64,000 bases of DNA from a virus. Under the pieces are notes generated by a model. The model had not been told where the DNA came from. It was given only the letters and a program-made list of their open reading frames with translations, and searched no databases. The stretch's first letter is position 1. Every line of letters starts with the position of its first letter. The DNA is taken from positions 86,002 through 150,001 of the IMG/VR virus record IMGVR_UViG_3300035152_000026, one strand, 5' to 3'. Below are positions 1 through 55,403 of the stretch, piece by piece. The translations under genes and the position numbers were made by a program.

Positions 1-15
1 TCCTCGGGGTGCTCC

Positions 16-1165
16 CCGGAATGCTAGCTCGATGGCTACTCAATCGAGACCGTATCGAGCCGAGCCCGAAGGCGTTCGCGCCCCAGACCCGGAATGCTAG
101 CTCGATGGCTACCCAATCGAGACTACAAAACGGGGCCAGCGGTGTTTTTCCGTGGCCGGCCCCCCGGAATGCTAGCTCGATGGCTATTCAATCAAGACGC
201 CACGCCAGGATGTAGACACGGAGGACTGAAATGGGAATGAAACCGAGACCGAAGAAAAGAACGGATCCACAGGTCCGTGAAACGTTGGTGTCTGCCGCCG
301 ACCGATTGATCGAGACTCTGGAAGACCTCCTACAACCATATGAGCGGGAAAAGGCGGAGGTGGTGATCAATGTGGCTCGGGAGGCTATTTACGAGTTGCA
401 GTACGCCAATCCGAACACCGAGATCGTACTCAAAAGCGTGCTACAGGCGTACCTGACGCCGGACGTCGGTATCTACCATTCCGGGTACGAAGCCGCCTTC
501 ACGAAGAAGTACGCCAAACTCGAAAAGATCATCAAGAAGGTCGTCGAGGCGACTGGCATGTAGCAGCTTGAATGCTTCCTTGTCGGTCAGGGGAGCATCC
601 CTTTTCAATCGAGACTTGAGCACCAAGGGCGACGACAATCATGCTAGCTCGATGGCTATTCAATCGAGACTTGAGCACCAAGGGCGACGACAACCATGCT
701 AGCTCGATGACTATTCAATCGAGACCTCGGCCCCGCAACCAACGAAGACCCGGAATGCTAGCTCGATGACTACTCAATCGAGACGTCGGATTTGGGATCG
801 AGGCTACCCAATCGAGACAGCCTAGCTCGTCTTTCGACGCGTCGAGATCGAACCCAGAATGCTAGCTCGATGGCTACCCAATCGAGACGCGAGCGACAAC
901 CTGGCGCGCGGTCTCAAAGTCGCGACCCGGAATGCTAGCTCGAAGATGATGAATCCGATGCAATTGAATCAGCCATGATCCGTGCTGGACTCATTTGGAA
1001 ATGTGTCGAGTGCGGCTACAACAACGAACCAGACTACACTGCGTGCGATAACTGTGACAGAGAACGCGAGGACGGGTGTCCCGGAATGCTAGCTCGATGG
1101 CTACCCAATCGAGACGCCGTAGATCAACACCAGGTGGTCCCAGAATGCTGGCTCGATGGCTAGAC
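16..1165 (+). CRISPR. CRISPR-like direct-repeat array. About 11 copies (8 full, 3 truncated) of a 36-bp repeat CCCGGAATGCTAGCTCGATGGCTACYCAATCGAGAC. Spacers are 23-39 bp; the last repeat is degenerate (1139..1165); ORF 231..563 is embedded.
   Basis: Full repeat copies at 16-50, 88-123, 163-198, 749-784, 853-888, 1080-1115. The 5'-divergent copies are at 639-670 and 694-725. Truncated copies are at 604-615, 801-818, 926-942 and 1139-1165. The repeat has an internal hairpin (CTCGAT / ATCGAG) followed by an 8-nt ATCGAGAC tail, which resembles a crRNA handle. No cas genes are present in the window. Confidence 0.45.
231..563 (+). CDS. hypothetical protein embedded between repeat units of the CRISPR-like array
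   Basis: 110-aa ORF with AGGA upstream of the ATG. It is flanked on both sides by repeat copies. Confidence 0.45.
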   Translation: MGMKPRPKKRTDPQVRETLVSAADRLIETLEDLLQPYEREKAEVVINVAREAIYELQYANPNTEIVLKSVLQAYLTPDVGIYHSGYEAAFTKKYAKLEKIIKKVVEATGM

Positions 1166-1208
1166 GTGTCCGGGTCCGGCAGAAAACAAGAAAGAGGAGT
1201 TTAGTGAC

Positions 1209-1448
1209 GTGGACAGCGACGATCCGATCGTGGTGCGTGTGAAGAAGGCACGGTGGGAAACACTCGGGCTCGACATGCCTCGGGATACCTACAGTGTCAT
1301 GGCGATTGAGCTACCGAGCGGTCGCCGCCTTGTAGCTATTGTTCCTTCTGGCATTGACGAAGCAGACGCCAGGTTTGCTGAACAGGAGCTGCGCAGCCTG
1401 GCCGATGTGATCGCTGGATTTTTTGGTCCTGCATCGACGAATTCATAG
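1209..1448 (+). CDS. hypothetical protein
   Basis: 79-aa ORF immediately after the array. Confidence 0.35.
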   Translation: MDSDDPIVVRVKKARWETLGLDMPRDTYSVMAIELPSGRRLVAIVPSGIDEADARFAEQELRSLADVIAGFFGPASTNS

Positions 1449-1492
1449 CGCGTTTTTTTGGGTACTTCACGATGGTGGTATGGCACGCTAAA

Positions 1493-1506
1493 ATCGCGTC
1501 CGCGAT
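1493..1506. promoter_or_regulatory. palindromic motif ATCGCGTCCGCGAT (copy 1 of 7), upstream of the 1625 gene
   Basis: Perfect inverted repeat ATCGCG-TC-CGCGAT preceded by an A-run. It lies in the intergenic region 1449-1624. Confidence 0.4.
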
Positions 1507-1624
1507 CATCGACGTGAAGCTTGCACGCAGCATCAATTCTAGGTAAAAACGAGGTAGGACGCGTCCCTGTACTACTGCTCTCAACTCCTCGACGCGTGGG
1601 GAGCAAACCGAAAGACGAGAACGA

Positions 1625-2239
1625 ATGCCAGTTCCTCCCGTGAAGTCCACCGCGGCGTGGCTGTCAGCTCATGATGCTGCAAAGCTGCTCGACGTAACCC
1701 CTGACTACATCGCGAAGTTGGGGCGCTCAAAGCGTATCCGCAGCAAACGGCTCGGGCCGAACCGCAACGCTTACTCCAAAGCTGATGTTGCGAAGTTCGC
1801 CGCTCAGCGAAAGCCACGCAAGAAGCCACGCAAGAGGTCACGCAAGCCTGGATCGAACGGTGCCGCCGGCAAGCCTGGATCGAATGGTGCCATTGACACA
1901 GACCGGTGGGTTGACGTGGCTGAAGCTGCGCGGATCACAGGCCTGACCAAAGGCGGTGTGAACTGGGCTGCTAAGCAGGGGCGCATTCCTACCGTCAACA
2001 TGGACGGCCACCCGAGGCGTTATCTCTACTCGGCTGACGCCTGCGAAAACTACAAGCGCACGAACAACGGACCCAAAGCGCAAACGTCGAAGTCAGACCC
2101 TGCCACGCGGATGGCACCGAAGCGCGCGCAGACTGCCATCCAGAAAGCACGCTGGGTGTTCGATGGAATCGCGATGGGTGCTATTACCTCTGAGAGCGAA
2201 GCTCTAGAACTTCTTCGCGGCATTCTCTACGAAGACTGA
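1625..2239 (+). CDS. DNA-binding protein with two helix-turn-helix-like segments and a basic KPRK repeat linker
   Basis: Two HTH-like stretches (LSAHDAAKLLDVTPDYIAKLG and WVDVAEAARITGLTKGGVNWAAKQG), similar to excisionase/MerR-type HTH. An internal 21-bp tandem duplication encodes KPGSNGA x2. Confidence 0.5.
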   Translation: MPVPPVKSTAAWLSAHDAAKLLDVTPDYIAKLGRSKRIRSKRLGPNRNAYSKADVAKFAAQRKPRKKPRKRSRKPGSNGAAGKPGSNGAIDTDRWVDVAEAARITGLTKGGVNWAAKQGRIPTVNMDGHPRRYLYSADACENYKRTNNGPKAQTSKSDPATRMAPKRAQTAIQKARWVFDGIAMGAITSESEALELLRGILYED

Positions 2240-2253
2240 GAAAGGAGCGTACG

Positions 2254-2823
2254 ATGATCAAACTACGTGGACTGTCCTGGTCTCGTATCGAGAGTGCCTG
2301 GCACGGCATGCGAACACGCCGCGATACGGTCGCGTTGGAACGCGCACTCATTCTACGGCAGCTGCGAGACATGGCGCCGTGGACGGATCGCAAACGGTAC
2401 GCGTCGCAGGCTGCGTACGACGAGCTGGCTGAGTACAGCTTTCACGACATACTTCGTCACCGTCTCTACGAGAACCCCAGAGAGGTCCGCAACACGTTGG
2501 CTGTGCTGGATACCTTCGGGGAGAAAGCCTTCCGACGCTACGGCCGCGCGGTGCTCGTCCGCATCCACAATCGCACGAGCAATCAACGCAAGCGGACGCG
2601 TGCGCTGCGTGAGCTGGACAAGATCATGCGGAAAGAGGATCGACCACCGTGCCCAACGACCGTGTCTCTGGTGCTCAACAAGATCGAGCCCGCCAAACGG
2701 CGCCCGAGCCACATCGAGTTGGTTCGCAAACTCAAAGAACGTATTCGCGCGTTGGAGACGGAGAACGCGCAGCTCAAGCACAAACTGCGTACAGGACGCG
2801 CACGTAAACGCAAGGCGGCCTAG
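2254..2823 (+). CDS. hypothetical basic protein with a C-terminal coiled coil
   Basis: 189 aa. The C-terminus (KLKERIRALETENAQLKHKL) is coiled-coil-like. An overlapping ORF in another frame (2267..2842) was judged less likely. Confidence 0.45.
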   Translation: MIKLRGLSWSRIESAWHGMRTRRDTVALERALILRQLRDMAPWTDRKRYASQAAYDELAEYSFHDILRHRLYENPREVRNTLAVLDTFGEKAFRRYGRAVLVRIHNRTSNQRKRTRALRELDKIMRKEDRPPCPTTVSLVLNKIEPAKRRPSHIELVRKLKERIRALETENAQLKHKLRTGRARKRKAA

Positions 2824-2838
2824 CCAGAAAGTAGTACT

Positions 2839-3381
2839 ATGAAGAAGCTCATGCAAACACTGGATGCCGAAGTTGATCGTCGCGTCGAGCAGCTGATCGA
2901 ACGTTTGCGGCCGCAACTCCATCACCTCGTACGCACCGAAGTCGTCAACGCTCTCGCCTACACGGTCAAAGTAGATGCCGGGCCGATCACGCCGAAGCAA
3001 GCTCAGAAGATAGTCACTGACGTCAATGCCACAGCAGCCATCACTTCGATACGAGGCATCGTAGAGACACCAAACGGTTGGGCGTGTGTTCACTGCGGCA
3101 CGACATTCAAGACCCAGCGAGCTGCTTCTATTCACGCACGTGCGTGCAAGCCCGAAGAGAAGCAGAAACCGCAAGGCTCACGTCGTGGCCCGCGCCGGGG
3201 CCCGCGTCGTTGCATCAAGCCAGGATGCAACGCACAAAGCAAGGGACCTCGTTTTCACCACCTCTGCGCAAAACACATCAACGCACCGAAGAAGCAGTGG
3301 CAAGCGTGGCAGAAGCAGGCACGGAAGCAGCCGCGAAAGAAAACACGTGCCGCGGCGACCACTGGACGGATAGAGGGATGA
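2839..3381 (+). CDS. zinc-finger protein, basic C-terminus
   Basis: CVHCG...HARAC and CIKPGC...HHLCAKH cysteine/histidine clusters. The C-terminus is lysine/arginine-rich. Confidence 0.45.
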   Translation: MKKLMQTLDAEVDRRVEQLIERLRPQLHHLVRTEVVNALAYTVKVDAGPITPKQAQKIVTDVNATAAITSIRGIVETPNGWACVHCGTTFKTQRAASIHARACKPEEKQKPQGSRRGPRRGPRRCIKPGCNAQSKGPRFHHLCAKHINAPKKQWQAWQKQARKQPRKKTRAAATTGRIEG

Positions 3382-3782
3382 CGATGCCCGAAAGCTTCAC
3401 TGACCCCATGGTCTACACAGAGGAATGGGCCGTCTGCGGGCGCCTCGATCAGCCTGTGACCGACTACATGAAGGACCCTAACAACCCCTGGAAGTGGAAT
3501 CGTGGGCTCCTGGTTCGAGCGGGCGGCGTTGGAAGGCTTTGGCTCAGGGCGATCCCAGATCCACAGGGACGCCTCGACGGGTCAACTCCTCCAGAGGTCT
3601 CAGCCCACACCCGAGCGAAGCTTGCCGCCGCAGCTCCCTGCATGTTCCGCCTCCTGATGGACATCTACGAGAACCCTGACAAGGACTGGTCCCAGGAGAT
3701 CACCAACGTTACGCGCCGTGCTCTCGCAGGCCAAGGTTACTATTACTACCGTTGGAAGGAGCCCCGTGACCTCACCGAATGA
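3378..3782 (+). CDS. hypothetical protein
   Basis: The start ATG at 3378 overlaps the upstream stop (ATGA). The N-terminal part of ORF 3078..3782 is an alternate frame of the upstream gene. Confidence 0.45.
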   Translation: MTMPESFTDPMVYTEEWAVCGRLDQPVTDYMKDPNNPWKWNRGLLVRAGGVGRLWLRAIPDPQGRLDGSTPPEVSAHTRAKLAAAAPCMFRLLMDIYENPDKDWSQEITNVTRRALAGQGYYYYRWKEPRDLTE

Positions 3783-4182
3783 AGACCTGATAGAGCAGAT
3801 CGCTGAAGTCATCTATCGGCATGCTGGTGGAATCTGCCCTGAAGAGTTCGAGAACGTCTTCGGCAAGCCGCAGCGACACTGGAAGACCGACGCCCCTCGG
3901 GACACTCGCGATGACGAACTGCAAGAGCATGAACGCGATGAGTATCGGCTCCAGGCCCGCAAGGTTGTTGAGACCGTCGCCTCCTACCTCTTACTCGATG
4001 GCAAAGACAAGCTCATGGTGACGTTGCGAACGAAGGCCGAGCGCGACCGCTACCGCAAGCATGTCGCCAAATTGCGCGGAATGCTCTACCAGTGGTTACT
4101 GGTGCCCGAGGATCGTGATGCGCAACTGGAGCAAGAAACAAGCGCGTTGCTGGCTGAAACTGCCGACAAGGAGGCGCCGTGA
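3718..4182 (+). CDS. hypothetical acidic protein (true start probably internal, e.g. GTG near 3766)
   Basis: 154-aa ORF. The 5' part overlaps the previous gene, so the start is uncertain. Confidence 0.4.
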   Translation: MLSQAKVTITTVGRSPVTSPNEDLIEQIAEVIYRHAGGICPEEFENVFGKPQRHWKTDAPRDTRDDELQEHERDEYRLQARKVVETVASYLLLDGKDKLMVTLRTKAERDRYRKHVAKLRGMLYQWLLVPEDRDAQLEQETSALLAETADKEAP

Positions 4183-4471
4183 GCGCGATGAGGCAAGAAC
4201 ACGAAGTACGGCAACTGCGCAAACAGCTCGATACCTACAGAAAACAGCACAATGTGTGACGCTCCGCTCTGCAACCGGCCCGCGCTCAAGTGGGATCTCT
4301 GCACTGCACATCTCGTGCTGTTCTGCCATCTCCTCGACCGCCGAATCGAAATCCCAGAATTTGACCGGCTCATGTCGTTGCCTACTGAAACCATGCTACA
4401 GGAACTCAACCGGCGTTTTCAGGTGCCCCAGTAAAAGACCCGACCGTCATTACCACTCCAGATGGTTTCAG

Positions 4472-4696
4472 ATTCGCGCGATGAATAGGCACTGGTGCTG
4501 CATTTGCGGAGCGGGATTCGAGACGGCGGGCGGACTGCGGCGCCATCTTCGGAACGTTCACTCCGAGGATACGGTAACCGATCACTCCTTTCGAGCGATT
4601 CGCTATTCGCACAACGGGCAACTACGAACAGGGAATTGCGCGATCTGCTATCGGCCCGCGCAATTGCACATGCGAGGTGAGCATGGAGACAGTTGA
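4472..4696 (+). CDS. C2H2-type zinc-finger protein
   Basis: MNRHWCCICGAGFETAGGLRRHLRNVH is a classic C2H2 finger. The upstream part of ORF 4061..4696 is probably non-coding overlap. Confidence 0.4.
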   Translation: MRAMNRHWCCICGAGFETAGGLRRHLRNVHSEDTVTDHSFRAIRYSHNGQLRTGNCAICYRPAQLHMRGEHGDS

Positions 4697-5040
4697 GTGC
4701 GCACGATGCCATGGTCGGATCGTGGTGAACAAAGAACTATACTGGGCGGACGTCCCGAGCGTCGGCGTGCTTTGCAATGCGTGCCACGAACGATGGCTAG
4801 AAGGTGAGCTAGCGGAAACAACCGATCCAGCTGAGGTGAAGAACGATGGCTGATCCCGAATTCAAAGACATGACAGGAGAGCCACGTTCGGACGCAGAGC
4901 TGCAAGAAGCGGTCGAACGGCATCTGGTTCGCAGCATGAACAAGCTGATTGATGGAAGTGCCCGATTTGTTCATGGCGCTCACGACGATTCACGATGCGT
5001 TGCAAGAGCTGCTCGCGATTCGCGGTGAGGGAATGAAAGG

Positions 5041-5712
5041 ATGCCGCTAGAGCTACGGCAAGTAAAGCGTAGTGTGTATTGCATGACCTATGTGCCCGCG
5101 TACGACGAGCCTCACCTCTGGTTGTGGTTGGGGTGGCGTAACACCCACTACGTGATGCGTTTCGCGTACGAACTCGTAGATCGCGAACTCGCAAAGTTGG
5201 ACCGATTCGGGCGTAGACCGAGCAAGAGTCGCCGATGGCGCGGCGTGGGCATACGATCGAGGCATGTAAAAACGATACGTTCTGTGATGAAGTTCCTCCG
5301 CAATGCACATGCTCGCGCAGCGGATAACGCTATGCGGTTGTCCAATATGAGAAATAGTCGTCCCCGACCTGAAAGTGTAGAAATGGTCAGCGAACTGAAA
5401 GACGTTTTCTGGGCTCACCTATTAACAGGTCCAGACGCTTACGGTGCGCGAATCGCGGACCAACTATATCAACGACTCACGATTCCCGAAAAAGACCTCA
5501 CCGAGGTCCACCTTCAGTACCGCCTCAACGATCTCACCAACGGTCGAGGCAGCCAAATACATGATGTTGACGTCGGCTATGCTTGCTTGGCCGCTTGCGA
5601 GATAGGACACTGGGATATCGCGCGCGACATCGCCCTATCTGCTCTGGTGCACGATGATGAACATACGTTGGGTGAGATCCCCGAAACAAAACAGACCCAC
5701 TCCCGAATATGA
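5041..5712 (+). CDS. hypothetical protein
   Basis: 223-aa ORF with GGA-rich upstream sequence. Confidence 0.45.
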   Translation: MPLELRQVKRSVYCMTYVPAYDEPHLWLWLGWRNTHYVMRFAYELVDRELAKLDRFGRRPSKSRRWRGVGIRSRHVKTIRSVMKFLRNAHARAADNAMRLSNMRNSRPRPESVEMVSELKDVFWAHLLTGPDAYGARIADQLYQRLTIPEKDLTEVHLQYRLNDLTNGRGSQIHDVDVGYACLAACEIGHWDIARDIALSALVHDDEHTLGEIPETKQTHSRI

Positions 5713-5902
5713 TCTGACTGTTGTGCAGCAAGCGCTCAGGTCAGCAATCGACATAGGCCGCTATGACGTCGCCCAACAGATCGTAGAGGAAGCGAAGGCT
5801 GATGTGTGCATCATCTGCGGGACCGCGCTTGCCACCTGCTCAGTGCTTCACGCCGGAACCAATATGCAGCTCTGTGACGAGTGTGCCTCTGAGTGGCAGT
5901 AG
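5654..5902 (+). CDS. hypothetical Cys-rich protein
   Basis: CIICG...CSVLH...CDEC cysteine pattern. Confidence 0.35.
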   Translation: MMNIRWVRSPKQNRPTPEYDLTVVQQALRSAIDIGRYDVAQQIVEEAKADVCIICGTALATCSVLHAGTNMQLCDECASEWQ

Positions 5903-6240
5903 CAATGGCTTGCGGTAGCTACAAACGGCACCGTTTCACCGAGCACGGATGTAAACGTGCTGCTTGTGTGCGCTGTGGTGCGCCGAACCCGAATTGGGAG
6001 ATCGTACTTCTCGTCAAGCCCGCACGGCGCCCTTCCTGGTGGCCCAAGAACGGCAAGAAGGGCGCAGCCTGGGCTACCATCAACTGGGATGGCGAGTGGA
6101 TACTCGGCTATTCGATAGGTGTGGACTTCAAGAAACAGTTTCGGCGGTCGCAGGCAAGAGCTGCTCGGAATCTTTGGGAGGAAGAGTACGACTTCCGAAA
6201 GTGGGTCTTCAGGGAGGTGCTAGGTCGAACGTCTAGCTAG
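5893..6240 (+). CDS. hypothetical protein with an N-terminal Cys cluster
   Basis: 115 aa, with a CGS...HGCKRAACVRCG cluster. Confidence 0.4.
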   Translation: MAVAMACGSYKRHRFTEHGCKRAACVRCGAPNPNWEIVLLVKPARRPSWWPKNGKKGAAWATINWDGEWILGYSIGVDFKKQFRRSQARAARNLWEEEYDFRKWVFREVLGRTSS

Positions 6241-6267
6241 AAGCCGAGCAGTCAATGCAGTACCATC

Positions 6268-6714
<447 letters not shown>

Positions 6715-6733
6715 CCCTGCTGGCGCCCACAAA

Positions 6734-7018
6734 CTAGTCAGCATCTCCATTACCATCGCTTGGTGGCTTGGGTTTGTTGATCACCGTCAGGCCAGGCAGT
6801 TTCAAGGGCTCATCAAGCGTCGCGACGCTGGCGAGTGCACGTGACAGTCGCATGGCTTGTGGAATCGTCAAACTTAGCTTGCGGCGCTCCGTCCACTTCT
6901 TGGTGACTGGCTGGACGATAGCGATGATGACCTCCTGATTGCCGTTTTCACGCACTACGTAGAGCGCGTGACCGTCGCCGAGGTCAATACGTACGCTATT
7001 TCGGCCGTAAGGCACCAC
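6734..7018 (-). CDS. hypothetical protein
   Basis: 94-aa ORF on the minus strand between plus-strand genes. Confidence 0.35.
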   Translation of the reverse strand: MVPYGRNSVRIDLGDGHALYVVRENGNQEVIIAIVQPVTKKWTERRKLSLTIPQAMRLSRALASVATLDEPLKLPGLTVINKPKPPSDGNGDAD

Positions 7019-7068
7019 GTGCAGTCTAACAGATGATCGCGGACAGGATCTCGTGATAGTGTGGCTTT

Positions 7069-7713
7069 ATGCTCTTCTACGCACACAACTCACAAGGCCT
7101 CGGCGCGGTGCTCATCGAGGGCACGAACTACAAATGCGGCGCGAAGCTCTGTTACGGAGTCGATGGGGCCACGAACACGCATAGGCTGTTTCAGGATCTG
7201 CAACAGGCTGCCAACCAGGTCGCCGCACTCTTCGGGTTGGCGCCCATCGCTGTCGATGGACTCATCGGTGTCAACACCGTAACGCTCATCCGGGAGATCG
7301 CCGCACGGGTACCTGCCGCAACCGGTGCGCTCGGGCAAGCTCGGGGAGCCTTTAGCAAGGAAGTCGCAGCCAAGACTGCAACTGAGTTGACTACTCAGTT
7401 GAAGGCCCTCCTGGTGCCTCGCCCCGTCGCGACACCTTCCACGTCTCAACCGTCACCTACTGTACTCACCCCGACAACGACTGCACCGGCACAGTCCGGG
7501 GCCTCTCCCATGACCACGCCTGCTGCACAAGCCACGACGTCTGCGCCATCAACACAGGCGACGACGCCAACGCAATCAGCAGCAGCTGCGATGACATCAA
7601 TGACACCCACGCCCAAGAAGACTCCAGTACTTGCCATCGCCGGAGTCATCGGCGGAGTTGCACTCCTCGGAACGATCATCGCAGTTATCGCCGTGAGGCG
7701 CAGCGGTCACTAG
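7069..7713 (+). CDS. peptidoglycan-binding domain protein with a Thr/Pro-rich linker and a C-terminal transmembrane anchor
   Basis: IAVDGLIGVNTVTLIREI resembles a PG_binding_1 domain. A long T/P/S/A linker follows. The C-terminus VLAIAGVIGGVALLGTIIAVIAV is hydrophobic. Confidence 0.55.
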   Translation: MLFYAHNSQGLGAVLIEGTNYKCGAKLCYGVDGATNTHRLFQDLQQAANQVAALFGLAPIAVDGLIGVNTVTLIREIAARVPAATGALGQARGAFSKEVAAKTATELTTQLKALLVPRPVATPSTSQPSPTVLTPTTTAPAQSGASPMTTPAAQATTSAPSTQATTPTQSAAAAMTSMTPTPKKTPVLAIAGVIGGVALLGTIIAVIAVRRSGH

Positions 7714-7805
7714 ACCGTTGTCAAGGCTTCACGCCTGACTTCTGCGTTTCTTCTCCTCACTCACGGACAAACAATAGGTTCCACCACGTGTCGCGCGGTT
7801 AGCTG

Positions 7806-7819
7806 ATCGCGGCCGCGAT
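7806..7819. promoter_or_regulatory. palindromic motif ATCGCGGCCGCGAT (copy 2), upstream of the ribonucleotide reductase gene
   Basis: Perfect 14-bp palindrome about 120 bp upstream of the 7940 start. Confidence 0.4.
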
Positions 7820-7939
7820 TTCTTCGTCGCGTATGACAACGGACAGTTTCTTGTCAGGCCGCGATGCTAGTATGGCCTGCGTCGGGGCGGCACCGAGGCG
7901 CCCGACGTTTGAGCCCTACACAACCGAGGACGGAGACTC

Positions 7940-10294
7940 GTGGAACTGCTGCAACCGAATCTGACCACTATTGGGGAGAGTGTCCTAGCGAAACGGTATC
8001 TGAAGCGGAACGAGAAAGGGGAAGTCATCGAGACGCCACGCGACCGCTTCGTTGCAGTAGCCAAGCATGTCGCACGAGCAGAACGCAATCACGGCGTCGA
8101 TCCGGAGACGGTGTGGCCCTCCTTCTATCGCATGATGGCCGCCCGAGATTTCATGCCAAACACGCCCTGCTTGGTAAATGCGGGACTGTCCGCCGGGCTC
8201 CTGTCCGCCTGCATCGTGTTGCCCATCGAGGACTCGATGCCGAGCATCTTCGGAACACTGCGCGACATGGCATTGAGCCACCAACAGGGCGCTGGGACGG
8301 GGTTCAGTTTTTCGCGGCTGCGCCCCAAAGACGACTTCGTGCGATCCACTACCGGACTTGCGAGTGGTCCGATCAGCTTCATGAAGGCATACAACAACGT
8401 TACGGAGTGCGTGAAGCAAAGCGGCGTTCGGCGCGGGGCGAACATAAGCGTCTTGCGTTGCGACCACCCGGATATTCTCGACTTCATCGACTGCAAGAAA
8501 GATCCGAGCGAGCTACAGAACTTCAACATCAGTGTCGGGATCACGAACGCCTTCATGGACGCGTTGGCAGCAGACGCAATGTACGCGCTGGTCAACCCAC
8601 GCACGAATGAGGTTGTGAGCGAGCTAGCAGCTCGAATGGTTTTCGATCGGGTCGTTCGCAACGCACATGCCACAGGTGAGCCAGGGCTCTTCTTCCTAGA
8701 TCGTGTGAATGAACTCGATCCGTTGACGACGGCCGACGATCCGATTGAAGCCCCAAATCCATGCGGCGAGCAGCCACTTCACCCGTATGACGCTTGCGAT
8801 CTGGGATCGATCAATCTCGTCAACTTCTACGACGTAGCAAATCGAGAATTGGACTTCAAGCGACTCGAAGCTACGACGCAGCTCGCTGTGCGCTTCCTCG
8901 ATGACATCCACGACGTCAACCAGTACCCGATTCCTCAGTTGGCAGAACGCACACGGGAAAATCGCCGTGTTGGCCTCGGCGTCATGGGCTGGGCGGACCT
9001 CCTGATCAAGATGGGTGTTCCCTACGCGTCACAGCAAGCGCGCGACCTCGCCGGCAACGTGATGAAGTTCATCAACACGCAGGCAATCGAAGCCAGCGAG
9101 GAGCTAGCAGCGCTTCGTGGACCGTTTCCAGCATTCGAGCGTTCAAAACACTTCACGGCGGGGCGCAAACACCGTCGCAACGGGACGGTGACCACGATTG
9201 CGCCAACCGGATCCATCTCGATCATCGCGGGATGTTCTAGCGGCATAGAGCCGTTGTTTGCCATCGTCCAGACGCGCAGGCAAGCCGACATGGAGATGGT
9301 AGACGTCAACCCAGACTTCGTCGAGATCGCGAAGCGGGAAGGCTTCTACAGTGATGCGCTCATGGAACGCGTCAAAGAGAACGGCACCGTTCGAGACGAT
9401 CCCGACGTGCCCACACGATGGCAACGTGTCTTCGCGGTCGCCAACGAAATCGATCCAGCTGCGCATGTGCAGATGCAAGCCGCATTTCAGCAGCACGTCG
9501 AGTGCGCGGTGTCCAAAACGATCAACATGCCCAAAGACGCGACCGTTGCTGACGTAGAACGCGCCTACAAGCTCGCCTGGGAAGAAGGTTGCAAGGGCAT
9601 CACGGTCTATCGCGATCAGTGCCGTGCGAATCAAACCCTGACGCTTGGTACCGGCAAGCGCCCCGAGCTGCACCCCATCCCGACGGGTACATATGATCTC
9701 CTCGGCGAGATGATCAAGACGCCCACAGGCAAGCTCAGCGTCAAGGTCGGGTTGGACATCAACGACCGGCCGTTTGAAACCTGGCTCGCTGTCAGCCGTG
9801 CTGGCACAGCAGTCAGCGCCGACTGTGAGGCCATTGCCCGGCTGGGATCCCTGGTGCTCCGGCTGGACAGCCCGATCAGCCCCGAGCGGCGCCTCCAGCT
9901 CATCGCGGACCAGCTCTCGGGCATCGGCGGGGGGGATTCGGTGGGATTTGGGCAAGAACGGGTCCTGTCACTCCCAGATGGGGTCGCCAAGGCCCTCCGT
10001 TCGCTCGCTGACGCGCTCGAAAGCCGCCGAGCGTCTACGCAGGCCTCGCCAGCAGAGGCCGTCGTAGAGCCTCCAGGGGCACCTAAGGGGGATAGCCACG
10101 GCAACGGGCACGGCAATGGGCACGGGCACGGAAATGGCCATGGAAACGGCAACGGGAATGGGAATGGCAACGGTAACGGCAACGGCCACAAACACGTTGC
10201 CTTCGGCGACATCTGCCCAGATTGCCACCAGGTCGCGCTGTACTACGCCGAGGGCTGCGCCAAGTGCGCGCTGTGCGGCTTCTCGCGTTGTTGA
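7940..10294 (+). CDS. nrdJ: ribonucleotide reductase, class II-like monomeric (adenosylcobalamin-dependent type), with a (GHGN)n low-complexity insert and a C-terminal zinc ribbon
   Basis: NPCGEQPLHPYDACDLGSINL is the RNR active-site motif. The length (784 aa) and the C-terminal CPDCH...CAKCALCGFSRC zinc ribbon fit the class II monomeric type. The GHGNGHGNGHGHGNGHGNGNGNGNGNGNGH insert lies at 10086-10190. Confidence 0.75.
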   Translation: MELLQPNLTTIGESVLAKRYLKRNEKGEVIETPRDRFVAVAKHVARAERNHGVDPETVWPSFYRMMAARDFMPNTPCLVNAGLSAGLLSACIVLPIEDSMPSIFGTLRDMALSHQQGAGTGFSFSRLRPKDDFVRSTTGLASGPISFMKAYNNVTECVKQSGVRRGANISVLRCDHPDILDFIDCKKDPSELQNFNISVGITNAFMDALAADAMYALVNPRTNEVVSELAARMVFDRVVRNAHATGEPGLFFLDRVNELDPLTTADDPIEAPNPCGEQPLHPYDACDLGSINLVNFYDVANRELDFKRLEATTQLAVRFLDDIHDVNQYPIPQLAERTRENRRVGLGVMGWADLLIKMGVPYASQQARDLAGNVMKFINTQAIEASEELAALRGPFPAFERSKHFTAGRKHRRNGTVTTIAPTGSISIIAGCSSGIEPLFAIVQTRRQADMEMVDVNPDFVEIAKREGFYSDALMERVKENGTVRDDPDVPTRWQRVFAVANEIDPAAHVQMQAAFQQHVECAVSKTINMPKDATVADVERAYKLAWEEGCKGITVYRDQCRANQTLTLGTGKRPELHPIPTGTYDLLGEMIKTPTGKLSVKVGLDINDRPFETWLAVSRAGTAVSADCEAIARLGSLVLRLDSPISPERRLQLIADQLSGIGGGDSVGFGQERVLSLPDGVAKALRSLADALESRRASTQASPAEAVVEPPGAPKGDSHGNGHGNGHGHGNGHGNGNGNGNGNGNGNGHKHVAFGDICPDCHQVALYYAEGCAKCALCGFSRC

Positions 10295-19586: not shown

Positions 19587-20060
19587 ATGATGCAAGCAAC
19601 AGCAGAGATTACCGAAGATGTATGGGCCCAACGACGTGCAGTGCGAGACCGCCTGAAAGCTGCGGTCAAACAGGCCAGCGGACGCAAAGCAACAGTCCTC
19701 TGCATGATGATTTCGCACATGCGGGGAAAGCTCCACTGCCAGAGCTATCAGAAGTACCACGGCGGCTGGCGATCCGTAGCGCAGCAACATGTCGAGGCCA
19801 TGCGCGCACGCAACCGGTTCGAGGAGCGGCTCGGGCCCGGCCAGGAACGCAAGTGGACCGAGTATCTCTTCGCCAGCTCGGTCATCGACACGCTCGACGA
19901 CCAAGCAGCATTTCTCCGCAAGTTCCTCGACGAGGAAGCCGTACAACGACGACGCTACGAGGAGGTCACGCAGAACGGGCGCCGCAAGCCGTACGTGTGG
20001 GAAACTCCTATGTTCGACGAGGAGTTGTGCAACATCTGCAAGGAGGTTTCGGCGACCTGA
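19587..20060 (+). CDS. hypothetical protein
   Basis: 157-aa ORF with GAAAGGA upstream. Confidence 0.4.
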   Translation: MMQATAEITEDVWAQRRAVRDRLKAAVKQASGRKATVLCMMISHMRGKLHCQSYQKYHGGWRSVAQQHVEAMRARNRFEERLGPGQERKWTEYLFASSVIDTLDDQAAFLRKFLDEEAVQRRRYEEVTQNGRRKPYVWETPMFDEELCNICKEVSAT

Positions 20061-20095
20061 CAGAATACGTCAGGCCTGGCCAGTATAGTCAGGCC

Positions 20096-21154
20096 ATGCT
20101 CACATCACCCTGTGACCTAGATCGGCCACCATTCGATGACCTGCACAGCTTCCGGTATTGGCGTAGGCAGGGCTATGTGCCTACCGCGCGGCTCGATGGC
20201 CGGAAAGAGTGGGGAGAGGTCTGTCATCTCCGCTGCCAATCGGATTCAAGTGTCGTAGCGTGTCCTAACAACATTGCCGGTGTACTTGCGTTAGAACGCC
20301 TCCACCAGGCTGTGGTCACGCGAACGTTCTTCGATCCGAAGACAGCACATGACACGGGTACGATCTACGTGACATTGATCCCACGTCCTGTCGTAGACTG
20401 GTTCTCGACATGCACGACGTCGGACGTCCACGAACAGATTGTGCTCTATCTCGGATTGCACATTGCACTCGGAGGCGACCAAGCGCTAATCCTACGTGAC
20501 ACTGCTCGTAAGTATCACGACAAGATTGTCAAACGCGTTGATACGTTACTCCGTGATCACCCCGATCTCCGCAACGATGAGCACGTCGTTGACTTGTCAC
20601 GTTACACGTCGAGTTTGCCTCCTTGGTTTCGACCCGAGCAAGTAACGTACGATAACCGTCGCCTGTGGACACTGCCGCCGCTGTGTCATATACCCTGGCC
20701 GAGGCGCACCAACCGGTGGGACACTTTTGGGATCATCAACTACCGGCTGACGGAAGTTGACGAAAAAAGGATCGACGACCACGAAAGCGATCCGCTTGAT
20801 CGCGCTGAGTCCTGCCCAGACGCGTTCGAGCACTTGCTCTATGCGCGTCACGCGAAAGACGCTTGGGCGACGATGTTTCAATCCGAGGATGACAACACAG
20901 GTGCTATCTATCTCATCCAGGATGGGCGTGGGCGTGTCAAAATCGGATGGACGGATAGTACACCTGCGAAGCGGCTAGCCGCACTACAGACCGGCAACGC
21001 TGATACGCTGCGGCTGCTAGGCACTATCCCCGGAACGCGAGAACAAGAGAAATATCTACACGCGAGATACGCCGACCAGAAAGCCCGTGACGAACGAACC
21101 GAATGGTTTTGTCTCACGCCAGCTGACGTGTTGGAGATTCTACGTGTGTCATAG
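20096..21154 (+). CDS. T5orf172 / GIY-YIG-like domain protein (C-terminal domain)
   Basis: The C-terminus (GAIYLIQDGRGRVKIGWT...RLAALQTGN...EQEKYLHARYA...EWF) matches the T5orf172/MUG113 family. The start is set at the first plausible Met; the 5' 474 nt of ORF 19622..21154 is the alternate frame of the upstream gene. Confidence 0.5.
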   Translation: MLTSPCDLDRPPFDDLHSFRYWRRQGYVPTARLDGRKEWGEVCHLRCQSDSSVVACPNNIAGVLALERLHQAVVTRTFFDPKTAHDTGTIYVTLIPRPVVDWFSTCTTSDVHEQIVLYLGLHIALGGDQALILRDTARKYHDKIVKRVDTLLRDHPDLRNDEHVVDLSRYTSSLPPWFRPEQVTYDNRRLWTLPPLCHIPWPRRTNRWDTFGIINYRLTEVDEKRIDDHESDPLDRAESCPDAFEHLLYARHAKDAWATMFQSEDDNTGAIYLIQDGRGRVKIGWTDSTPAKRLAALQTGNADTLRLLGTIPGTREQEKYLHARYADQKARDERTEWFCLTPADVLEILRVS

Positions 21155-21178: not shown

Positions 21179-21251
21179 ACACCCGTAGCTCGAAGGCCGA
21201 GCGTGCAGTCTGTGGAGCTGCAAGGTGGGGGTTCGATTCCCTCCGGGTGTA
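21179..21251 (+). tRNA. isolated tRNA-like gene with an ambiguous anticodon arm (9-nt loop, or 6-bp stem with GTG)
   Basis: Acceptor ACACCCG/CGGGTGT, D-arm GCTC/GAGC, T-arm GGGGG-TTCGATT-CCCTC (identical to the T-arm of tRNA-Thr at 54409). The anticodon region is TGCAG-TCTGTGGAG-CTGCA. Confidence 0.45.
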
Positions 21252-21262
21252 CCGGAGGATCG

Positions 21263-31636: not shown

Positions 31637-31986
31637 GGTAACGTTCTTTTAGCACGTGGGTGTGACCACCCTGCTCGACGCCGCAAACGAGCCTCCCTGA
31701 CTAGCTCAGCGTTTCGATGCACTTCAGCTTCCGCTACGATACGGGTAGCGCCAGCCTTGTGATCAGACTGCGGATTTGGTCCGATGAGGCTGACGAAGTC
31801 GGGCAACGAATCCGCAGCGACAAGCGTCGCAGTGTAGGAGTCCAACACGTAAGCCTTGACTTCCCCGACACACGTCACCCAGCCGACCACGTTCCGCAAT
31901 CGTGGCTGCGTGGCGTCGTGGTCCTCATAGATCGCGAAGTAGCCCGAAGCTGCGGTACAGAAAGTCATTTGCGCAGGTTTAGACAT
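31633..31986 (-). CDS. hypothetical protein
   Basis: 117-aa ORF overlapping its neighbours by 4-8 nt. Confidence 0.4.
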   Translation of the reverse strand: MSKPAQMTFCTAASGYFAIYEDHDATQPRLRNVVGWVTCVGEVKAYVLDSYTATLVAADSLPDFVSLIGPNPQSDHKAGATRIVAEAEVHRNAELVREARLRRRAGWSHPRAKRTLP

Positions 31987-34900
31987 CTGCCCAGCTCCGG
32001 CCTTTCGCAGGGTCTACCGAGAAGTGAATCGTGACGCCGTTATGTGTGTGAGTCTGCTCGAAGCAGTCTTTGACGTCAGTCATCAAGCGGTCGCCGTCAG
32101 CCTCGTCGCACTCGAAAACGATGGCGTCGTGGATCTGGATGATCGGGTCAGCGTTGGAGTATTCGTTGCGTAGCTTTGGCATCAAACGGAGGAGCCCAGT
32201 GGCCATGATGTCAGCTCCAGTCGACTGAACCGGGAAGTTGTACACGTCGTTCATGTCAGCGTTGCCCAGAGGGAAACACCGTCGCCGACCGTAGATTGCC
32301 GACCGCAGCTCGTGCGGTGGCTGGGCAACGTCTCGCAGAAGCTTCTGATGCCACGCCGTAACGCCGGGCATCCGCGCGGTCATCAACGCGACCATCCGCG
32401 CGATGTCAGCCTGCTTTACGTCCGGGTAGTCCTTGACCACGTTCTTCCAGAGCGTGTCGATCGACCCTCCGTAGAATGCCCCATACTCGGGCCGCTTGAC
32501 CGTATCGCGGAGAACCTTGCGGCGCTCATAAGGTAACTCGTCGAAGTTGGGCCAAACGATGCGTGCGAACTCGCTGTGGATATCCTTCCCGTCGTTGAAG
32601 ATCGCGCACAGGAATGGATCGCCGGAAAGAAGTGCGATGATTCGTGCTTCTAGCTGCGCGAAGTCGAAGCCAACAAGGATCCGTCCAAGGCGTGCTTCAA
32701 ACTGTTTGCGGAGATTTGGGCGCCCCTTCTTCGCGTCAGCTTTCGGCACGTTCTGGCAGACTGGATCTTCAGCACTCCATCGGCCTGTGATCCGATGGAC
32801 ATTCCACCGCGGATGCACGCGACTGTTCGCGTCTGCATAGCCGTACTTGACGATGTTGCCCTGTTCGTCATATCGATCAAAGAGCGCGTAGACGAAGGTA
32901 GAGAACAGTTTCTGATTCTCGCGGTAGTCCAACAGGCTACGTACTTCGGGGATGTGCGCGAAGCTTTCCAGGATCTCTTTCTTCGTGGACGTCGAACCCT
33001 TCTCGGTCAGGAAGTAGAGCGGCACTCCACGAGCCTTTAGATAACCAACGATGTGATCCGAGGAGCCAACGTTCCACTCCCACGTAGCTTTATCGATGGA
33101 ATCGAGCAGCTCTTGCAGGCGTACCTTTTGTCGCTCCCGATAGTCTTCCGGATCTGGCTCTTTACCTTTTGGGTTACGTGCGAACTTCGCTTGCTCGGCT
33201 GCAATGCCAACCCATAGCTCTTCCTGGATCTCAGGCCGGGCAGCGTCGTCCTCAACGATCTTACGGAGCGCTTCGTTTTCCTTGTCGCTACGCCACGCGT
33301 AGAGTGCTTGGATGGCTGGGTGCTTGTCCGCGTGATCTTTGAGCCACGCCTTCGTGATGCTGGCCGCACCCTTTTTGGTCAGGGGCACATCAAGCCCGTG
33401 GACCTTCAACCAACCAGCAAGATGCGCCGACGAATTGATTTGCCACTTCCAAGCGCCTCTGTCTGCGGCGATCCGAATTTCGTCCAAGCGAACCTGTTGT
33501 CGGGCCTCGTAGCGTTCGGGGTCCTGTTTGGCCGCAGTCCCTTTGCGAACACGCTTGGCTTGCTCTGCCGCGATGCGATCAAGCAGCTTGTCGCGGATCT
33601 CAGGGTTGTTAGCCTTCTCTTCGATTTCTGCACGCGCCCGCTGCATGTTCTGCCAGAACTGATCGTAGAGCTGTTGATTCACCTCCTGTGAAACCGGGAT
33701 GCCCGCGTCGTACATCCATTCCGCGGCTTCTGCGCACAGAAGATCAATCTCGTAGCACTTCGCAGACTGTGTGCGCGCGATGGCGATATCGAGGGGCTCG
33801 TCGAGGCGTGCGGTAACTAGTGTGTCCTTGGCGTTATAGATTACGAGGTTCTCAACCGTGTCTTTGCCTTCACGGAACTCCGATTTCCACGGCGTGATCG
33901 CGAAGTACTGCGTAGCCGCGCGTTGCAGGTTGTGCGAAAGGCCAGGAAAGGCTGCGTGGTGTTTGAGCAACGTGTCATCGACTGGACCGTGTACGGGCAT
34001 TCCATGCCGTTTCAAAACACCACGGTCATATATCGAGTTGTGGAACACGACACGAACAAGCGGATCGGCCATAAGCGCAGCCATGAGGCGCTTGGCCATC
34101 GGTGTGACGATGTTCCATGCTATCGAAAGGCCCCACTTTGGGGTAGCGAAGCCGATGGCGGTCAACTTTGCGTTGATGGGCTGTAGTGCAGAATGCTGTT
34201 GCTCGTTGTCTACGTAGGTCTCGGTGTCGCAGGCTACCATGCGCTCTCTGCGAGCATCTTGCACCATCCGACGCATAAGCATCTCGGCGCGTCTGGCGTC
34301 AGCGTACTCGACGACGATGTCCTCCTCGCGGAAGACGATATCGCGTCCGGCAGCGATGGCCTTCACCTTCGCTGCGTCGTACATCAGATTCCAGAAAGCA
34401 ATGTCTGGCGAGTGCGCGCCGCCAATTCCGGCGCCCCCGCGGAGGATTGCCGCAGGGTGAATCGTTGGGATGACTGCGCGGTAGCCTGAACCGTCCGCGT
34501 TGACCTGATGATAGGAGCCCGCCAACGCCTGGATCGAAGTGTTGCGCCCGAGGAATGCGCGAGTTGCCACAGCACCGAGGGCGAGCACAGGAAGGCCTGG
34601 GCGCTCAACCATCTCTGCGGTAAAACGTGGCTCGCAGCACTTGCGGGCCTTTTCTTTCAAGTTGTCGTCAGCCTCTGGTGGCGGTCGGCACAACGTAACG
34701 TTAGACACCCACAAGCGGCGCCGATCTTGCCCAACGGCTGTGAGTGCTTTGTTGACCAACTGCCCGCTAGCGCCAACGAACGGACGGCCTAAAGCAGCTT
34801 CGTGCTGACCCGGACCTTCACCAATGACAATCCATTCCGGCGTCGCTGACCCCTCCCCAACAACAGGTTGGTTAGGTTGTCTATTTCTGGCTAGTGGACA

Positions 34901-34993
34901 ATCTTCACACAGCGCGCCCTCGATGCGCCCACGAATCATCGGTGCAGGTCCTGCACGTAGAACAGGACTCTGTCCTTGCGGACGTAACCGCAT
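31979..34993 (-). CDS. polA: DNA polymerase I-family (family A) polymerase with an N-terminal family-4 uracil-DNA glycosylase-like domain (UDG-PolA fusion)
   Basis: N-terminus: GEGPGQHEAALGRPFVGASGQLVNKAL...HPAAILR (UDG family 4 motifs). C-terminus: DFAQLEARI (motif A), RRKVLRD...YGAFYG (motif B), QIHDAIVFE (motif C). 1004 aa. Confidence 0.85.
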   Translation of the reverse strand: MRLRPQGQSPVLRAGPAPMIRGRIEGALCEDCPLARNRQPNQPVVGEGSATPEWIVIGEGPGQHEAALGRPFVGASGQLVNKALTAVGQDRRRLWVSNVTLCRPPPEADDNLKEKARKCCEPRFTAEMVERPGLPVLALGAVATRAFLGRNTSIQALAGSYHQVNADGSGYRAVIPTIHPAAILRGGAGIGGAHSPDIAFWNLMYDAAKVKAIAAGRDIVFREEDIVVEYADARRAEMLMRRMVQDARRERMVACDTETYVDNEQQHSALQPINAKLTAIGFATPKWGLSIAWNIVTPMAKRLMAALMADPLVRVVFHNSIYDRGVLKRHGMPVHGPVDDTLLKHHAAFPGLSHNLQRAATQYFAITPWKSEFREGKDTVENLVIYNAKDTLVTARLDEPLDIAIARTQSAKCYEIDLLCAEAAEWMYDAGIPVSQEVNQQLYDQFWQNMQRARAEIEEKANNPEIRDKLLDRIAAEQAKRVRKGTAAKQDPERYEARQQVRLDEIRIAADRGAWKWQINSSAHLAGWLKVHGLDVPLTKKGAASITKAWLKDHADKHPAIQALYAWRSDKENEALRKIVEDDAARPEIQEELWVGIAAEQAKFARNPKGKEPDPEDYRERQKVRLQELLDSIDKATWEWNVGSSDHIVGYLKARGVPLYFLTEKGSTSTKKEILESFAHIPEVRSLLDYRENQKLFSTFVYALFDRYDEQGNIVKYGYADANSRVHPRWNVHRITGRWSAEDPVCQNVPKADAKKGRPNLRKQFEARLGRILVGFDFAQLEARIIALLSGDPFLCAIFNDGKDIHSEFARIVWPNFDELPYERRKVLRDTVKRPEYGAFYGGSIDTLWKNVVKDYPDVKQADIARMVALMTARMPGVTAWHQKLLRDVAQPPHELRSAIYGRRRCFPLGNADMNDVYNFPVQSTGADIMATGLLRLMPKLRNEYSNADPIIQIHDAIVFECDEADGDRLMTDVKDCFEQTHTHNGVTIHFSVDPAKGRSWADV

Positions 34994-54480: not shown

Positions 54481-54484
54481 CTGA

Positions 54485-54558
54485 TCCCTCGTAGCTCAAT
54501 TGGTAGCAGCACCTGGCCGTTAACCAGGGGGTTATCCGTTCAAGTCGGATCGAGGGAG
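54485..54558 (+). tRNA. trnN: tRNA-Asn (GTT), D-stem with a one-base insertion
   Basis: Acceptor TCCCTCG/CGAGGGA, anticodon CCTGG-CCGTTAA-CCAGG, T ATCCG-TTCAAGT-CGGAT. Confidence 0.55.
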
Positions 54559-54626
54559 CTACTGGTAGTCAAAGGAAAGGCCCTCGTTGACTAACGCAGG
54601 ATCGTACTCTCAGGTACCTTAGAGCT

Positions 54627-55136
54627 ATGGAATGCGCCAAGTGCCACGAAGAGTTTCCTACTCGAATAGTCATAGACGGGAAGGTGCGGAACCTGTCGAG
54701 TCGTAGGTACTGCGTTTCCTGCTCCCCATTTGGGGCTAACAATCGGAAGAAGATCCACATCCACGATATAAGACGTAAGCCGACTAGGTGTAGGTTGTGC
54801 TCAGGGAAGCTAGTCCCCGGGAAAGGGGATGTATGCTACACCTGTCGATCTAGGATTAGGCGATATCGGGTGAAGGTTGCGGCTATAACCCTCCTTGGCG
54901 GAAAGTGTCAACGCTGTGGTTTCTCAGGGAGTCCAGCAGCCTTTGAGTTCCACCACAACGGTAAGAAGGACTTTCAGATCAGCGAGAACAGCAACCGAGC
55001 GTGGGCTGTAGTCAAGAAGGAAGTTCTGAAATGCGAACTCCTGTGTTCCAATTGCCATCGACAGGAGCACACTGGAGATAGGGGGGAGGCGTTCCTTCGT
55101 GCCGTAGCGGAGTACAGAGGGATGCCCCTGACCTGA
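54627..55136 (+). CDS. HNH endonuclease inserted in the tRNA array (homing-endonuclease-like)
   Basis: Cys pairs CAKCH/CVSC and CQRCG; FEFHH...CSNCHRQEH is the HNH motif. Local GC is lower than the flanks. Confidence 0.7.
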   Translation: MECAKCHEEFPTRIVIDGKVRNLSSRRYCVSCSPFGANNRKKIHIHDIRRKPTRCRLCSGKLVPGKGDVCYTCRSRIRRYRVKVAAITLLGGKCQRCGFSGSPAAFEFHHNGKKDFQISENSNRAWAVVKKEVLKCELLCSNCHRQEHTGDRGEAFLRAVAEYRGMPLT

Positions 55137-55138
55137 CT

Positions 55139-55209
55139 GGCTTCGTAGTCAAGTGGCAAGGCACGGGTCTGCAAAACCTGTATCGTGGGTTCGACTCCCA
55201 CCGAAGCCT
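55139..55209 (+). tRNA. trnC: tRNA-Cys (GCA)
   Basis: Acceptor GGCTTCG/CGAAGCC, anticodon loop CTGCAAA, T GTGGG-TTCGACT-CCCAC. Confidence 0.6.
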
Positions 55210-55325: not shown

Positions 55326-55329
55326 CAAC

Positions 55330-55402: not shown

Positions 55403-55403
55403 C

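Follow-up and report, generated by a model that had tools for sequence, protein, structure and literature searches.

The first 1,165 nucleotides (nt) of a 64,000-nt stretch of viral DNA (IMG/VR record IMGVR_UViG_3300035152_000026, record positions 86,002 to 150,001; this stretch is called the window, and coordinates are those of the window) very probably constitute the distal part of a clustered regularly interspaced short palindromic repeats (CRISPR) array that belongs to a phage-encoded type V-M-like system with no adaptation genes nearby. The original prediction had described these repeats as a CRISPR-like array, had called it Cas-less with possible use of host Cas proteins, and had placed any cas genes upstream of coordinate 1. 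The last of these statements was borne out, as a gene for a Cas12m-like effector ends about 190 nt before the window. The orphan, Cas-less look of the array is an artefact of the window edge, and the array belongs to a complete, very small CRISPR system on a large phage.

An exact scan of metagenome contigs with the 36-nt repeat of the array returned a single 2.9-kb contig (L001), on which 15 copies of the repeat directly follow a 505-amino-acid (aa) open reading frame (ORF) with a TnpB/Cas12-like C-terminus. The exact scan gave no match in IMG/VR, nor in the genomes of 185,579 species (the original prediction had proposed to look for the repeat in host genomes); megablast of window positions 1-8000 against GenBank phages did not give any match either. 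A lookup of the ORF at 231-563 led to four further contigs (L002-L005), which represent the window's phage in four Joint Genome Institute (JGI) samples. L002 is identical to window positions 1-8691 (0 mismatches) and reaches 972 nt further to the left, its first 769 nt corresponding to the last 259 aa of the effector, which argues against a disrupted effector gene in the window's own genome. L003 and L004 reach further left than L002, and the full effector ORF is visible in both.

Together, the contigs that extend upstream show three extra repeat-spacer units and a 527-aa ORF, the effector gene, on the same strand as the array. The TAG stop codon of this gene is formed by nt 11-13 of repeat 1, and no leader, which had been expected upstream, is present between the gene and the array. 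At each of the six close-family loci checked, the stop codon falls within repeat 1 (L003, 3549-3551; L001, 1921-1923; L006, 6245-6247; L007, 9534-9536; L011, 11495-11497; L013, 10213-10215). Since the full effector ORF adjoins the array upstream of coordinate 1, the array is not Cas-less. Inside the window, no cas-like gene was recognized in the three small ORFs adjacent to the array (Pfam, NCBIfam and PADLOC) or in the ten large ORFs scanned (PHROGs and Pfam), which are only some of the ORFs present. No match to a Cas1, Cas2 or Cas4 family was found in the gene calls of L002 that cover window positions 1-8691, or in the gene calls up to 6-8 kb from the effector gene in L002, L003 and L006-L009.

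The repeats are confined to one locus. With up to three mismatches, a probe for the 30-nt core ATGCTAGCTCGATGGCTACCCAATCGAGAC found eight copies in the 64 kb, all on the + strand and between 21 and 1115, where shuffled sequences lead one to expect 0.00. Shorter probes for the stem-loop and the 3' tail did not reveal any convincing further copy in the 64 kb, each giving one chance-level match (at 49259 and 28849). The 36-nt repeat family is thereby restricted to 15-1165 on the + strand, with eight full units, one truncated terminal unit, two half units and one tail. The intervals measure 37 and 39 nt before the ORF at 231-563 and 25, 25, 23, 17, 34, 37 and 23 nt after it, so that nine spacer-like intervals were counted in the window instead of the eight reported originally; the irregular spacing, the 110-aa ORF, the insertion and the degenerate, truncated terminal repeat were all found as described before. 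The proximal units have unique spacers of 35-39 nt, while the distal part contains spacers of 17-25 nt, one near-duplicate and half repeats. The near-duplicate pair consists of the two 25-nt spacers s3 and s4 (Tandem Repeats Finder period 55). The features of the array are as follows:

1-14 (+), end of spacer sC (last 14 nt), the third of the upstream spacers, the full 35 nt of which are visible in L002, L004 and L005
15-50 (+), repeat with intact scaffold, the fourth unit from the cas12m-like gene
51-87 (+), spacer s1, 37 nt
88-123 (+), repeat with intact scaffold
124-162 (+), spacer s2, 39 nt; its own hairpin is no better than shuffles (z = -0.19)
163-198 (+), repeat with G32A, which breaks one stem pair; followed by the 5' untranslated region of orf110
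231-563 (+), orf110, a 110-aa ORF inside the array with a GGAGG Shine-Dalgarno sequence
568-615 (+), strong unrelated hairpin (about 573-599), then a bare repeat 3' tail TCAATCGAGAC (605-615)
616-640 (+), spacer s3, 25 nt
635-670 (+), repeat with intact 30-nt core (641-670) and divergent first 6 nt
671-695 (+), spacer s4, 25 nt, near-duplicate of s3
690-725 (+), repeat with G21A, which breaks one pseudoknot pair, and divergent first 6 nt
726-748 (+), spacer s5, 23 nt
749-784 (+), repeat with G21A
785-818 (+), 17-nt spacer-like piece (785-801) and repeat 3' half (802-818)
819-852 (+), spacer s7, 34 nt
853-888 (+), repeat with intact scaffold
889-925 (+), spacer s8, 37 nt
926-947 (+), repeat 5' half, broken off after GCTCGA
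948-1079 (+), non-repeat insertion block of 132 nt after the 5' half repeat
975-1163 (+), 62-aa ORF with a RanBP2-type zinc ribbon, which begins in the 132-nt insertion and reads through the last two repeats
1080-1115 (+), repeat with intact scaffold
1116-1138 (+), spacer s9, 23 nt
1139-1165 (+), degenerate truncated terminal repeat without the 3' stem arm

The identity of the effector was assessed by sequence profiles and by structure prediction. Searches with the single sequence recognized only the C-terminal zinc ribbon and RuvC-III region: Pfam gave the Cas12f1-like TNB domain above cutoff, and the PDB gave weak matches to Cas12f, TnpB and CasPhi without reaching Cas12m. The PADLOC profiles returned Cas12u1 (1e-35, residues 131-495), a name that is explained by the former designation of type V-M as V-U1. 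In a large protein collection we found 36 full-length homologues of 472-531 aa and 35-76% identity, none of them informatively named, followed in rank by three more distant proteins. A family profile built from 35 homologues matched Cas12m (23vw) in the PDB end to end (8-465 of 491, E = 4.7e-44), then Cas12m2 (8hio, 3e-24) and UnCas12m4a (1e-15), with TnpB far behind. An AlphaFold2 model of the effector (predicted local distance difference test score, pLDDT, 87; predicted template-modelling score 0.77) gave as its four best Foldseek matches in the PDB the Cas12m2 structures 8hhl, 8hio and 8hhm and Cas12m 8pm4, with E values from 3e-21 to 2.5e-17 and template-modelling (TM) scores of about 0.63 (8hhl: 3e-21, TM 0.64). 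TnpB and Cas12f came next, and CasPhi and CasLambda were far weaker. By profile and predicted fold, the effector is therefore a Cas12m-like protein that is homologous to Cas12m over its whole length.

A HMMER scan of 1.84 billion representatives yielded about 1,600 Cas12m-like clusters at E <= 1e-30, with a steep drop in score, from 486 to about 310 bits, below the 13th full-length representative. Relatives of the effector are encoded on 18 IMG/VR viral contigs of 13-245 kb. A pattern-plus-tblastn scan of the 185,579 species-representative cellular genomes did not detect any relative, an absence that is no proof because the scan was pattern-based. So far, members of this compact clade are known from viral contigs and from unclassified metagenome contigs.

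Across the 35 homologues of the family alignment, D276, K405 and D486 do not vary, nor do the zinc-ribbon cysteines C459, C462, C476 and C479. In the profile alignments, D276 falls opposite the residue of RuvC-I (D in 23vw, H317 in Cas12m2), K405 opposite that of RuvC-II (E in 23vw, D485 in Cas12m2) and D486 opposite RuvC-III. The residue that follows K405 in the window phage's protein is Asn, and therefore no acidic side chain is nearby. Among 181 collected relatives, 42 have the triad D-K-D and 103 have D-E-D; the median length is 498 aa for the D-K-D proteins (together with two fragments reading -KD), compared with 597 aa for the D-E-D proteins. More distant viral relatives of 580-780 aa have D-E-D. 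D-K-D is absent from the published Cas12m combinations (HEK/HQK, HDD, DED/NED, DND and NDD) and, as judged from sequence, points to a separate subclade; since the triad varies in subtype V-M, this is no argument against membership of that subtype. The characterized Cas12m proteins, including those with D-E-D, bind DNA without cutting it. Given this precedent and the lysine in RuvC-II, the D-K-D effector most likely binds DNA rather than cuts it.

The repeat itself has the features of a Cas12m CRISPR RNA (crRNA) scaffold. CTCGAT (nt 14-19) pairs with ATCGAG (nt 29-34), so that the tail ATCGAGAC, which had been taken to resemble the 8-nt handle of type I and type III repeats, consists of the 3' stem arm and AC and is not a single-stranded handle; the ATCGAG segment is base-paired and covaries with its partner, and the neighbouring gene encodes a single Cas12m-like protein. 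At the orthologous loci, arrays with different repeat sequences and the same layout directly follow the effector gene, and all of these repeats fold into a 6-bp stem (nt 14-19/29-34) with a 9-nt loop and a final AC. Because folding of the single sequences is not better than that of shuffles (z between -0.5 and -1.4), the scaffold structure rests on covariation. This was evaluated with 15 repeats from 13 loci for the pairs nt 9-11/20-22 and nt 14-19/29-34, a structure that had been derived from the same 15 sequences. Paired cells made up 94.8%, and compensatory changes on both sides were seen in eight of the nine pairs. None of 500 shuffles reached the observed values for paired cells, cells changed on both sides, further pair types or covariation score, and 2 of 500 reached the number of pairs changed on both sides. 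When the partners were slid by one to three columns as a control, only about 36% were paired.

C14, G34, A35 and C36 are invariant in the alignment, and G13 is nearly so. In the published PmCas12m crRNA, positions -28 to -26 pair with -17 to -15 and positions -23 to -20 with -6 to -3, while the Cas12m2 crRNA has a six-pair helix capped by a G(-23):A(-2) pair and a C(-1) that is read base-specifically. The segments paired in the repeat are those paired in the solved PmCas12m and Cas12m2 complexes, with G13 and A35 as the counterparts of the published G(-23):A(-2) pair and C36 as that of C(-1). By this comparison of sequences, the repeat is a type V-M scaffold with a predicted pseudoknot, a 6-bp stem and a terminal GAC, and the guide is expected 3' of the repeat. 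No full-length anti-repeat was found on either strand of the window or of L003, which fits the Cas12m mechanism that works without a trans-activating crRNA (tracrRNA). Rfam did not give any family in 1-1300 at E values up to 10, and only transfer RNAs (tRNAs) reached gathering scores.

The array has 12 spacers in total, nine in the window and three upstream. As the published Cas12m guide measures only about 17 nt, the window's spacers of 23-25 nt have sufficient length to function. The spacers vary from lineage to lineage, and phage genes are matched by some of them: in two sister arrays, spacer 1 has a protospacer in the window, as listed here:

20233-20268 (-), protospacer of L001 spacer 1, 34/36 identical, 5' flank GTTG, in the ORF at 19622-21154
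41407-41430 (+), protospacer of L006 spacer 1, 22/24 identical (E about 1e-3), 5' flank TCTC, in the ORF at 41095-42717

The BLAST segment of L001 spacer 1 is identical at 33 of 34 positions, with E about 1e-11 for the sequence searched. The effector of L001 is 62-64% identical to that of the window phage, and the effector of L006 is 76% identical. The first of the two target ORFs has a C-terminal T5orf172/MUG113 domain, and the second is primase-like; no relatives of the latter were found in IMG/VR. Relative to their genes, the two protospacers are on opposite strands. Their flanks TTG and CTC, two sites only, both fit 5'-YTN, the protospacer-adjacent motif (PAM) of PmCas12m.

By analogy with published Cas12m work, the effector gene and the array would be co-transcribed from left to right, and the effector would bind the pseudoknot and stem of each repeat and trim the precursor close to the repeat's 5' end. 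In the resulting crRNA, about 33 nt would derive from the repeat and about 17-20 nt from the spacer downstream of it, and a tracrRNA would not be needed. The effector-crRNA complex would bind double-stranded DNA beside a 5'-YTN motif and would silence or block its targets by binding instead of cutting. The likeliest use would be competition between related phages during co-infection. The irregular array may reflect recombination between repeats without dedicated adaptation machinery.

Differences between the arrays of related contigs bear on this last point. L003 is without the three proximal units that are present in L002, L004 and L005. Spacer gain in L004 relative to L003 was considered and set aside, and deletion by recombination between repeats is likelier from the sequences, since the repeats that flank the missing units are identical and spacer sB, which is missing from L003, also occurs far from the gene in L001 (92% identical). 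L007 and L008 encode the same effector protein, and their arrays differ in the first spacer and in one duplicated unit, which is consistent with gene-proximal turnover. At the distal ends of the L001 and L028 arrays the spacers are even shorter (3-11 nt), and those of L001 are too short to guide. L002 and L003, from separate samples, are the two contigs that cover the distal part of the array, and its sequence is identical in both. Taken together, the half repeats, the short and duplicated spacers and the embedded ORFs are best explained by recombination between repeats.

The embedded orf110 has one homologue in 5.8 billion proteins, encoded on contig L028, where it again lies between two blocks of the same repeat family and has an identical ribosome-binding context. 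The two copies differ by 6 synonymous and 22 non-synonymous codons so that purifying selection is not apparent. No known family was recognized for orf110, Pfam, NCBIfam and PADLOC yielding noise only, and the AlphaFold2 model (pLDDT 57) was too poor for a fold search. Within orf110, 13 positions of the 14-nt segment CTACCATTCCGGGT at 473-486 are complementary to ACCCGGAATGCTAG, the 5' part of the repeat; the segment is kept in L028, and such a match occurred in only 7 of 2000 codon shuffles. The hairpin of about 26 nt after orf110 (573-599) is inverted in L028 (563-593), where it overlaps the end of the ORF.

Solitary local repeats occur outside the main array in L011 (919 on the - strand, 8507, 9041, 9162, 9345, 9400 and 16619) and L017 (2472 and 6583), several of them 4-50 nt before ORF start codons. 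The 36 nt after each of these repeats did not have a target among the fetched loci. Published crRNA processing takes place after nt 2-3 of the repeat, so that the effector mRNA would lose its stop codon; autoregulation of the effector through stop-codon removal is a possible consequence.

Several observations weigh against a working anti-phage system in the form proposed here. BLAST of the 12 spacers of the array did not reveal any target in the window or the fetched loci. A concatenated search with 10 of them and six spacers of L001 against GenBank phages, a plasmid collection not being included, was also negative, as were exact IMG/VR scans with four of the array's spacers; the spacer matches that the original prediction had proposed to look for thus failed to appear for the array's own spacers. 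The PAM and the anti-phage role are based on two protospacers, which belong to sister arrays and have two mismatches each, and the loss of nuclease activity on one residue and analogy. Moreover, no adaptation genes were seen, and part of the array is possibly inert, since in several of the distal units the scaffold is broken or the spacer is too short to serve as a guide.

This last point leads to the possibility that within the window the array, above all 605-1165, has lost its function and survives as a decaying relic, and that only the gene-adjacent units are used. Half repeats, a duplicated spacer, the scaffold breaks G21A and G32A, the truncated last repeat and the read-through ORFs would fit such decay, as would the very short distal spacers of L001 and L028. 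However, five units of the window keep an intact scaffold together with a spacer of at least 23 nt, which exceeds the guide length of characterized Cas12m, and the distal part did not diverge between the separate samples of L002 and L003. We consider the relic doubtful but by no means far-fetched. Programmable regulation of the phage itself or of its host, in which the effector would use the array and the repeat units ahead of ORFs to repress promoters of phage or host or to process and control the RNA of the early operon, is a less probable alternative to anti-phage defence. Here, the matches to the window phage would be spacers from the lineage's own homologous genes, and L001 and L006 are indeed short contigs that give no view of their own target genes. 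The RuvC-II lysine would make self-targeting non-lethal, orf110 is retained within the array in two lineages, relatives have solitary repeats directly before ORFs, and the effector stop codon is inside repeat 1 at all six loci. Against this, no spacer of the window matches its own 64 kb, the 36 nt after the solitary repeats have no other match among the fetched loci, and the characterized Cas12m systems act against plasmids and phages. The stop codon in repeat 1, the 14-nt complement in orf110 and the solitary repeats before ORFs also suggest, with a small chance of being right, that a nuclease-dead Cas12m and its repeats form an RNA-processing or CRISPR interference (CRISPRi)-like control circuit for phage early genes. 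Such a circuit would include self-regulation of the effector and would act alongside or instead of the targeting of rival phages.

Two readings offered in the original prediction fared worse. A Cas-less mini-array, whose repeats mimic those of a host CRISPR so that the phage can borrow host Cas proteins, would agree with the failure to see a cas gene near the array in the window, and virus-borne mini-arrays of this kind have been described in the literature. It is very improbable, since the array is fused to an effector gene of the phage itself, the repeat covaries with the effector family, and neither the repeat (exact scan) nor a relative of the effector was found in the 185,579 species genomes. 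An RNA anti-CRISPR decoy was also considered and set aside because the cognate effector adjoins the repeats and no host repeat matches. That the repeats are not CRISPR at all but iterons, promoters or terminator-like hairpins of the phage early region might be supposed from the irregular spacing, the half units, the ORFs between repeats and the single-sequence folding. Yet the repeats are confined to one locus, they adjoin a Cas12m homologue in every orthologous locus, their compensatory covariation matches the solved crRNA scaffold, and the spacers are lineage-specific, with protospacers of sister arrays in phage genes. A non-CRISPR origin is hardly conceivable in view of these findings, and the array is regarded as a true, phage-borne CRISPR array.

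The genomic context is that of a large phage, whose replication and nucleotide-metabolism region forms the window, with genes for a ribonucleotide reductase, a family A DNA polymerase, several helicases, a primase-like protein and a PD-(D/E)XK exonuclease. The polymerase ORF of 1004 aa (31979-34993, -) combines the family A DNA polymerase with a 3'-5' exonuclease and an N-terminal domain of the uracil-DNA-glycosylase superfamily. The 33 tRNA genes, all on the + strand, fit a large phage; 32 of them are located in 53880-58760, and a tRNA-His gene is at 21179-21253. An 868-aa ORF at 45486-48092 (+) has a Major Vault Protein shoulder domain (Pfam, 3e-30) and a Vault_3 repeat, which is unusual for a phage, and it sits in the replication module. 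In the neighbourhood of the effector gene, L003 has a 274-aa upstream ORF (755-1579) with an (EA)n run encoded by nine GAAGCT repeats and no Pfam match. The L006 interval 760-3544, upstream of the cas12m-like gene, holds a gene with WGR, PARP regulatory and PARP catalytic domains at a distance of about 1.1 kb and, still further upstream, a gene with a DNA polymerase beta thumb domain. Downstream of the L006 array is an ORF of similar size to that upstream in L003 (273 aa), with Pfam matches to FHA and Yop-YscD_cpl.

If the effector is a true natural DNA binder, it would be of practical interest for compact CRISPRi, base-editing and epigenome tools. The first spacers of sister phages match replication-region genes beside the expected PAM and may be regarded as direct sequence evidence of phage-versus-phage targeting. 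In addition, the embedded conserved ORF and the overlap of gene and array raise questions about how arrays evolve and are regulated without Cas1-Cas2.

Compared with known systems, the closest likeness is to type V-M Cas12m (MmCas12m2, GoCas12m and PmCas12m). The likeness comprises full-length homology by profile and fold, an architecture of WED, REC, RuvC and TNB zinc-finger domains, a 36-nt repeat that shares the pseudoknot, the stem and the terminal G-A-C, the lack of a full-length anti-repeat, an array directly beside a lone effector gene, and YTN-type protospacer flanks. A non-canonical RuvC triad also follows a known trend in the subtype. In contrast, the proteins of the window's clade measure 472-531 aa, as opposed to 577-614 aa for the characterized proteins (literature and PDB searches), and their D-K-D is not among the published triads. 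Its known members come from viral or unclassified metagenome contigs, none from the cellular genomes scanned, and the window's system is further set apart by a stop codon inside repeat 1 and by ORFs embedded in the array.

Phage-borne Cas12m has been reported very recently. MvCas12m of myxophage MV-1 has 610 aa, an intact D-E-D and no confident protospacers (bioRxiv 10.64898/2026.09.14.751636), and the accessible part of a study of landfill viromes lists 24 viral Cas12m-like proteins and does not mention phage-versus-phage protospacers (PMC12607003). MvCas12m and the landfill proteins resemble the window's effector in being phage-encoded Cas12m with an adjacent array, no cas1, cas2 or cas4 and, by prediction for the window's effector, no tracrRNA. 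Unlike MvCas12m, the window's clade is about 100 aa shorter, has D-K-D and includes sister arrays with identifiable phage targets. The compact D-K-D clade, the overlap of gene and array, the embedded ORF and the cross-phage protospacers are not described in the accessible parts of these reports.

A more remote parallel is CasPhi (Cas12j), which is likewise a compact single effector of large phages without adaptation genes or tracrRNA. Its repeat measures 36 nt and has a hairpin followed by AC at the end, and CasPhi has been proposed to act in conflicts among phages. The relation is only remote (Foldseek E about 1e-6, TM 0.37), as the sequence likeness is limited to the zinc ribbon and RuvC-III, and CasPhi is an active nuclease. 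Finally, virus-borne Cas-less mini-arrays and RNA anti-CRISPRs share with the present system the location of repeats on a virus, some of them isolated or degenerate, and relatives of the window phage have solitary repeats. Such elements imitate a repeat of the host and either rely on its Cas proteins or poison them, whereas the repeats of the window match none in the species genomes scanned and adjoin the gene of their own cognate effector.

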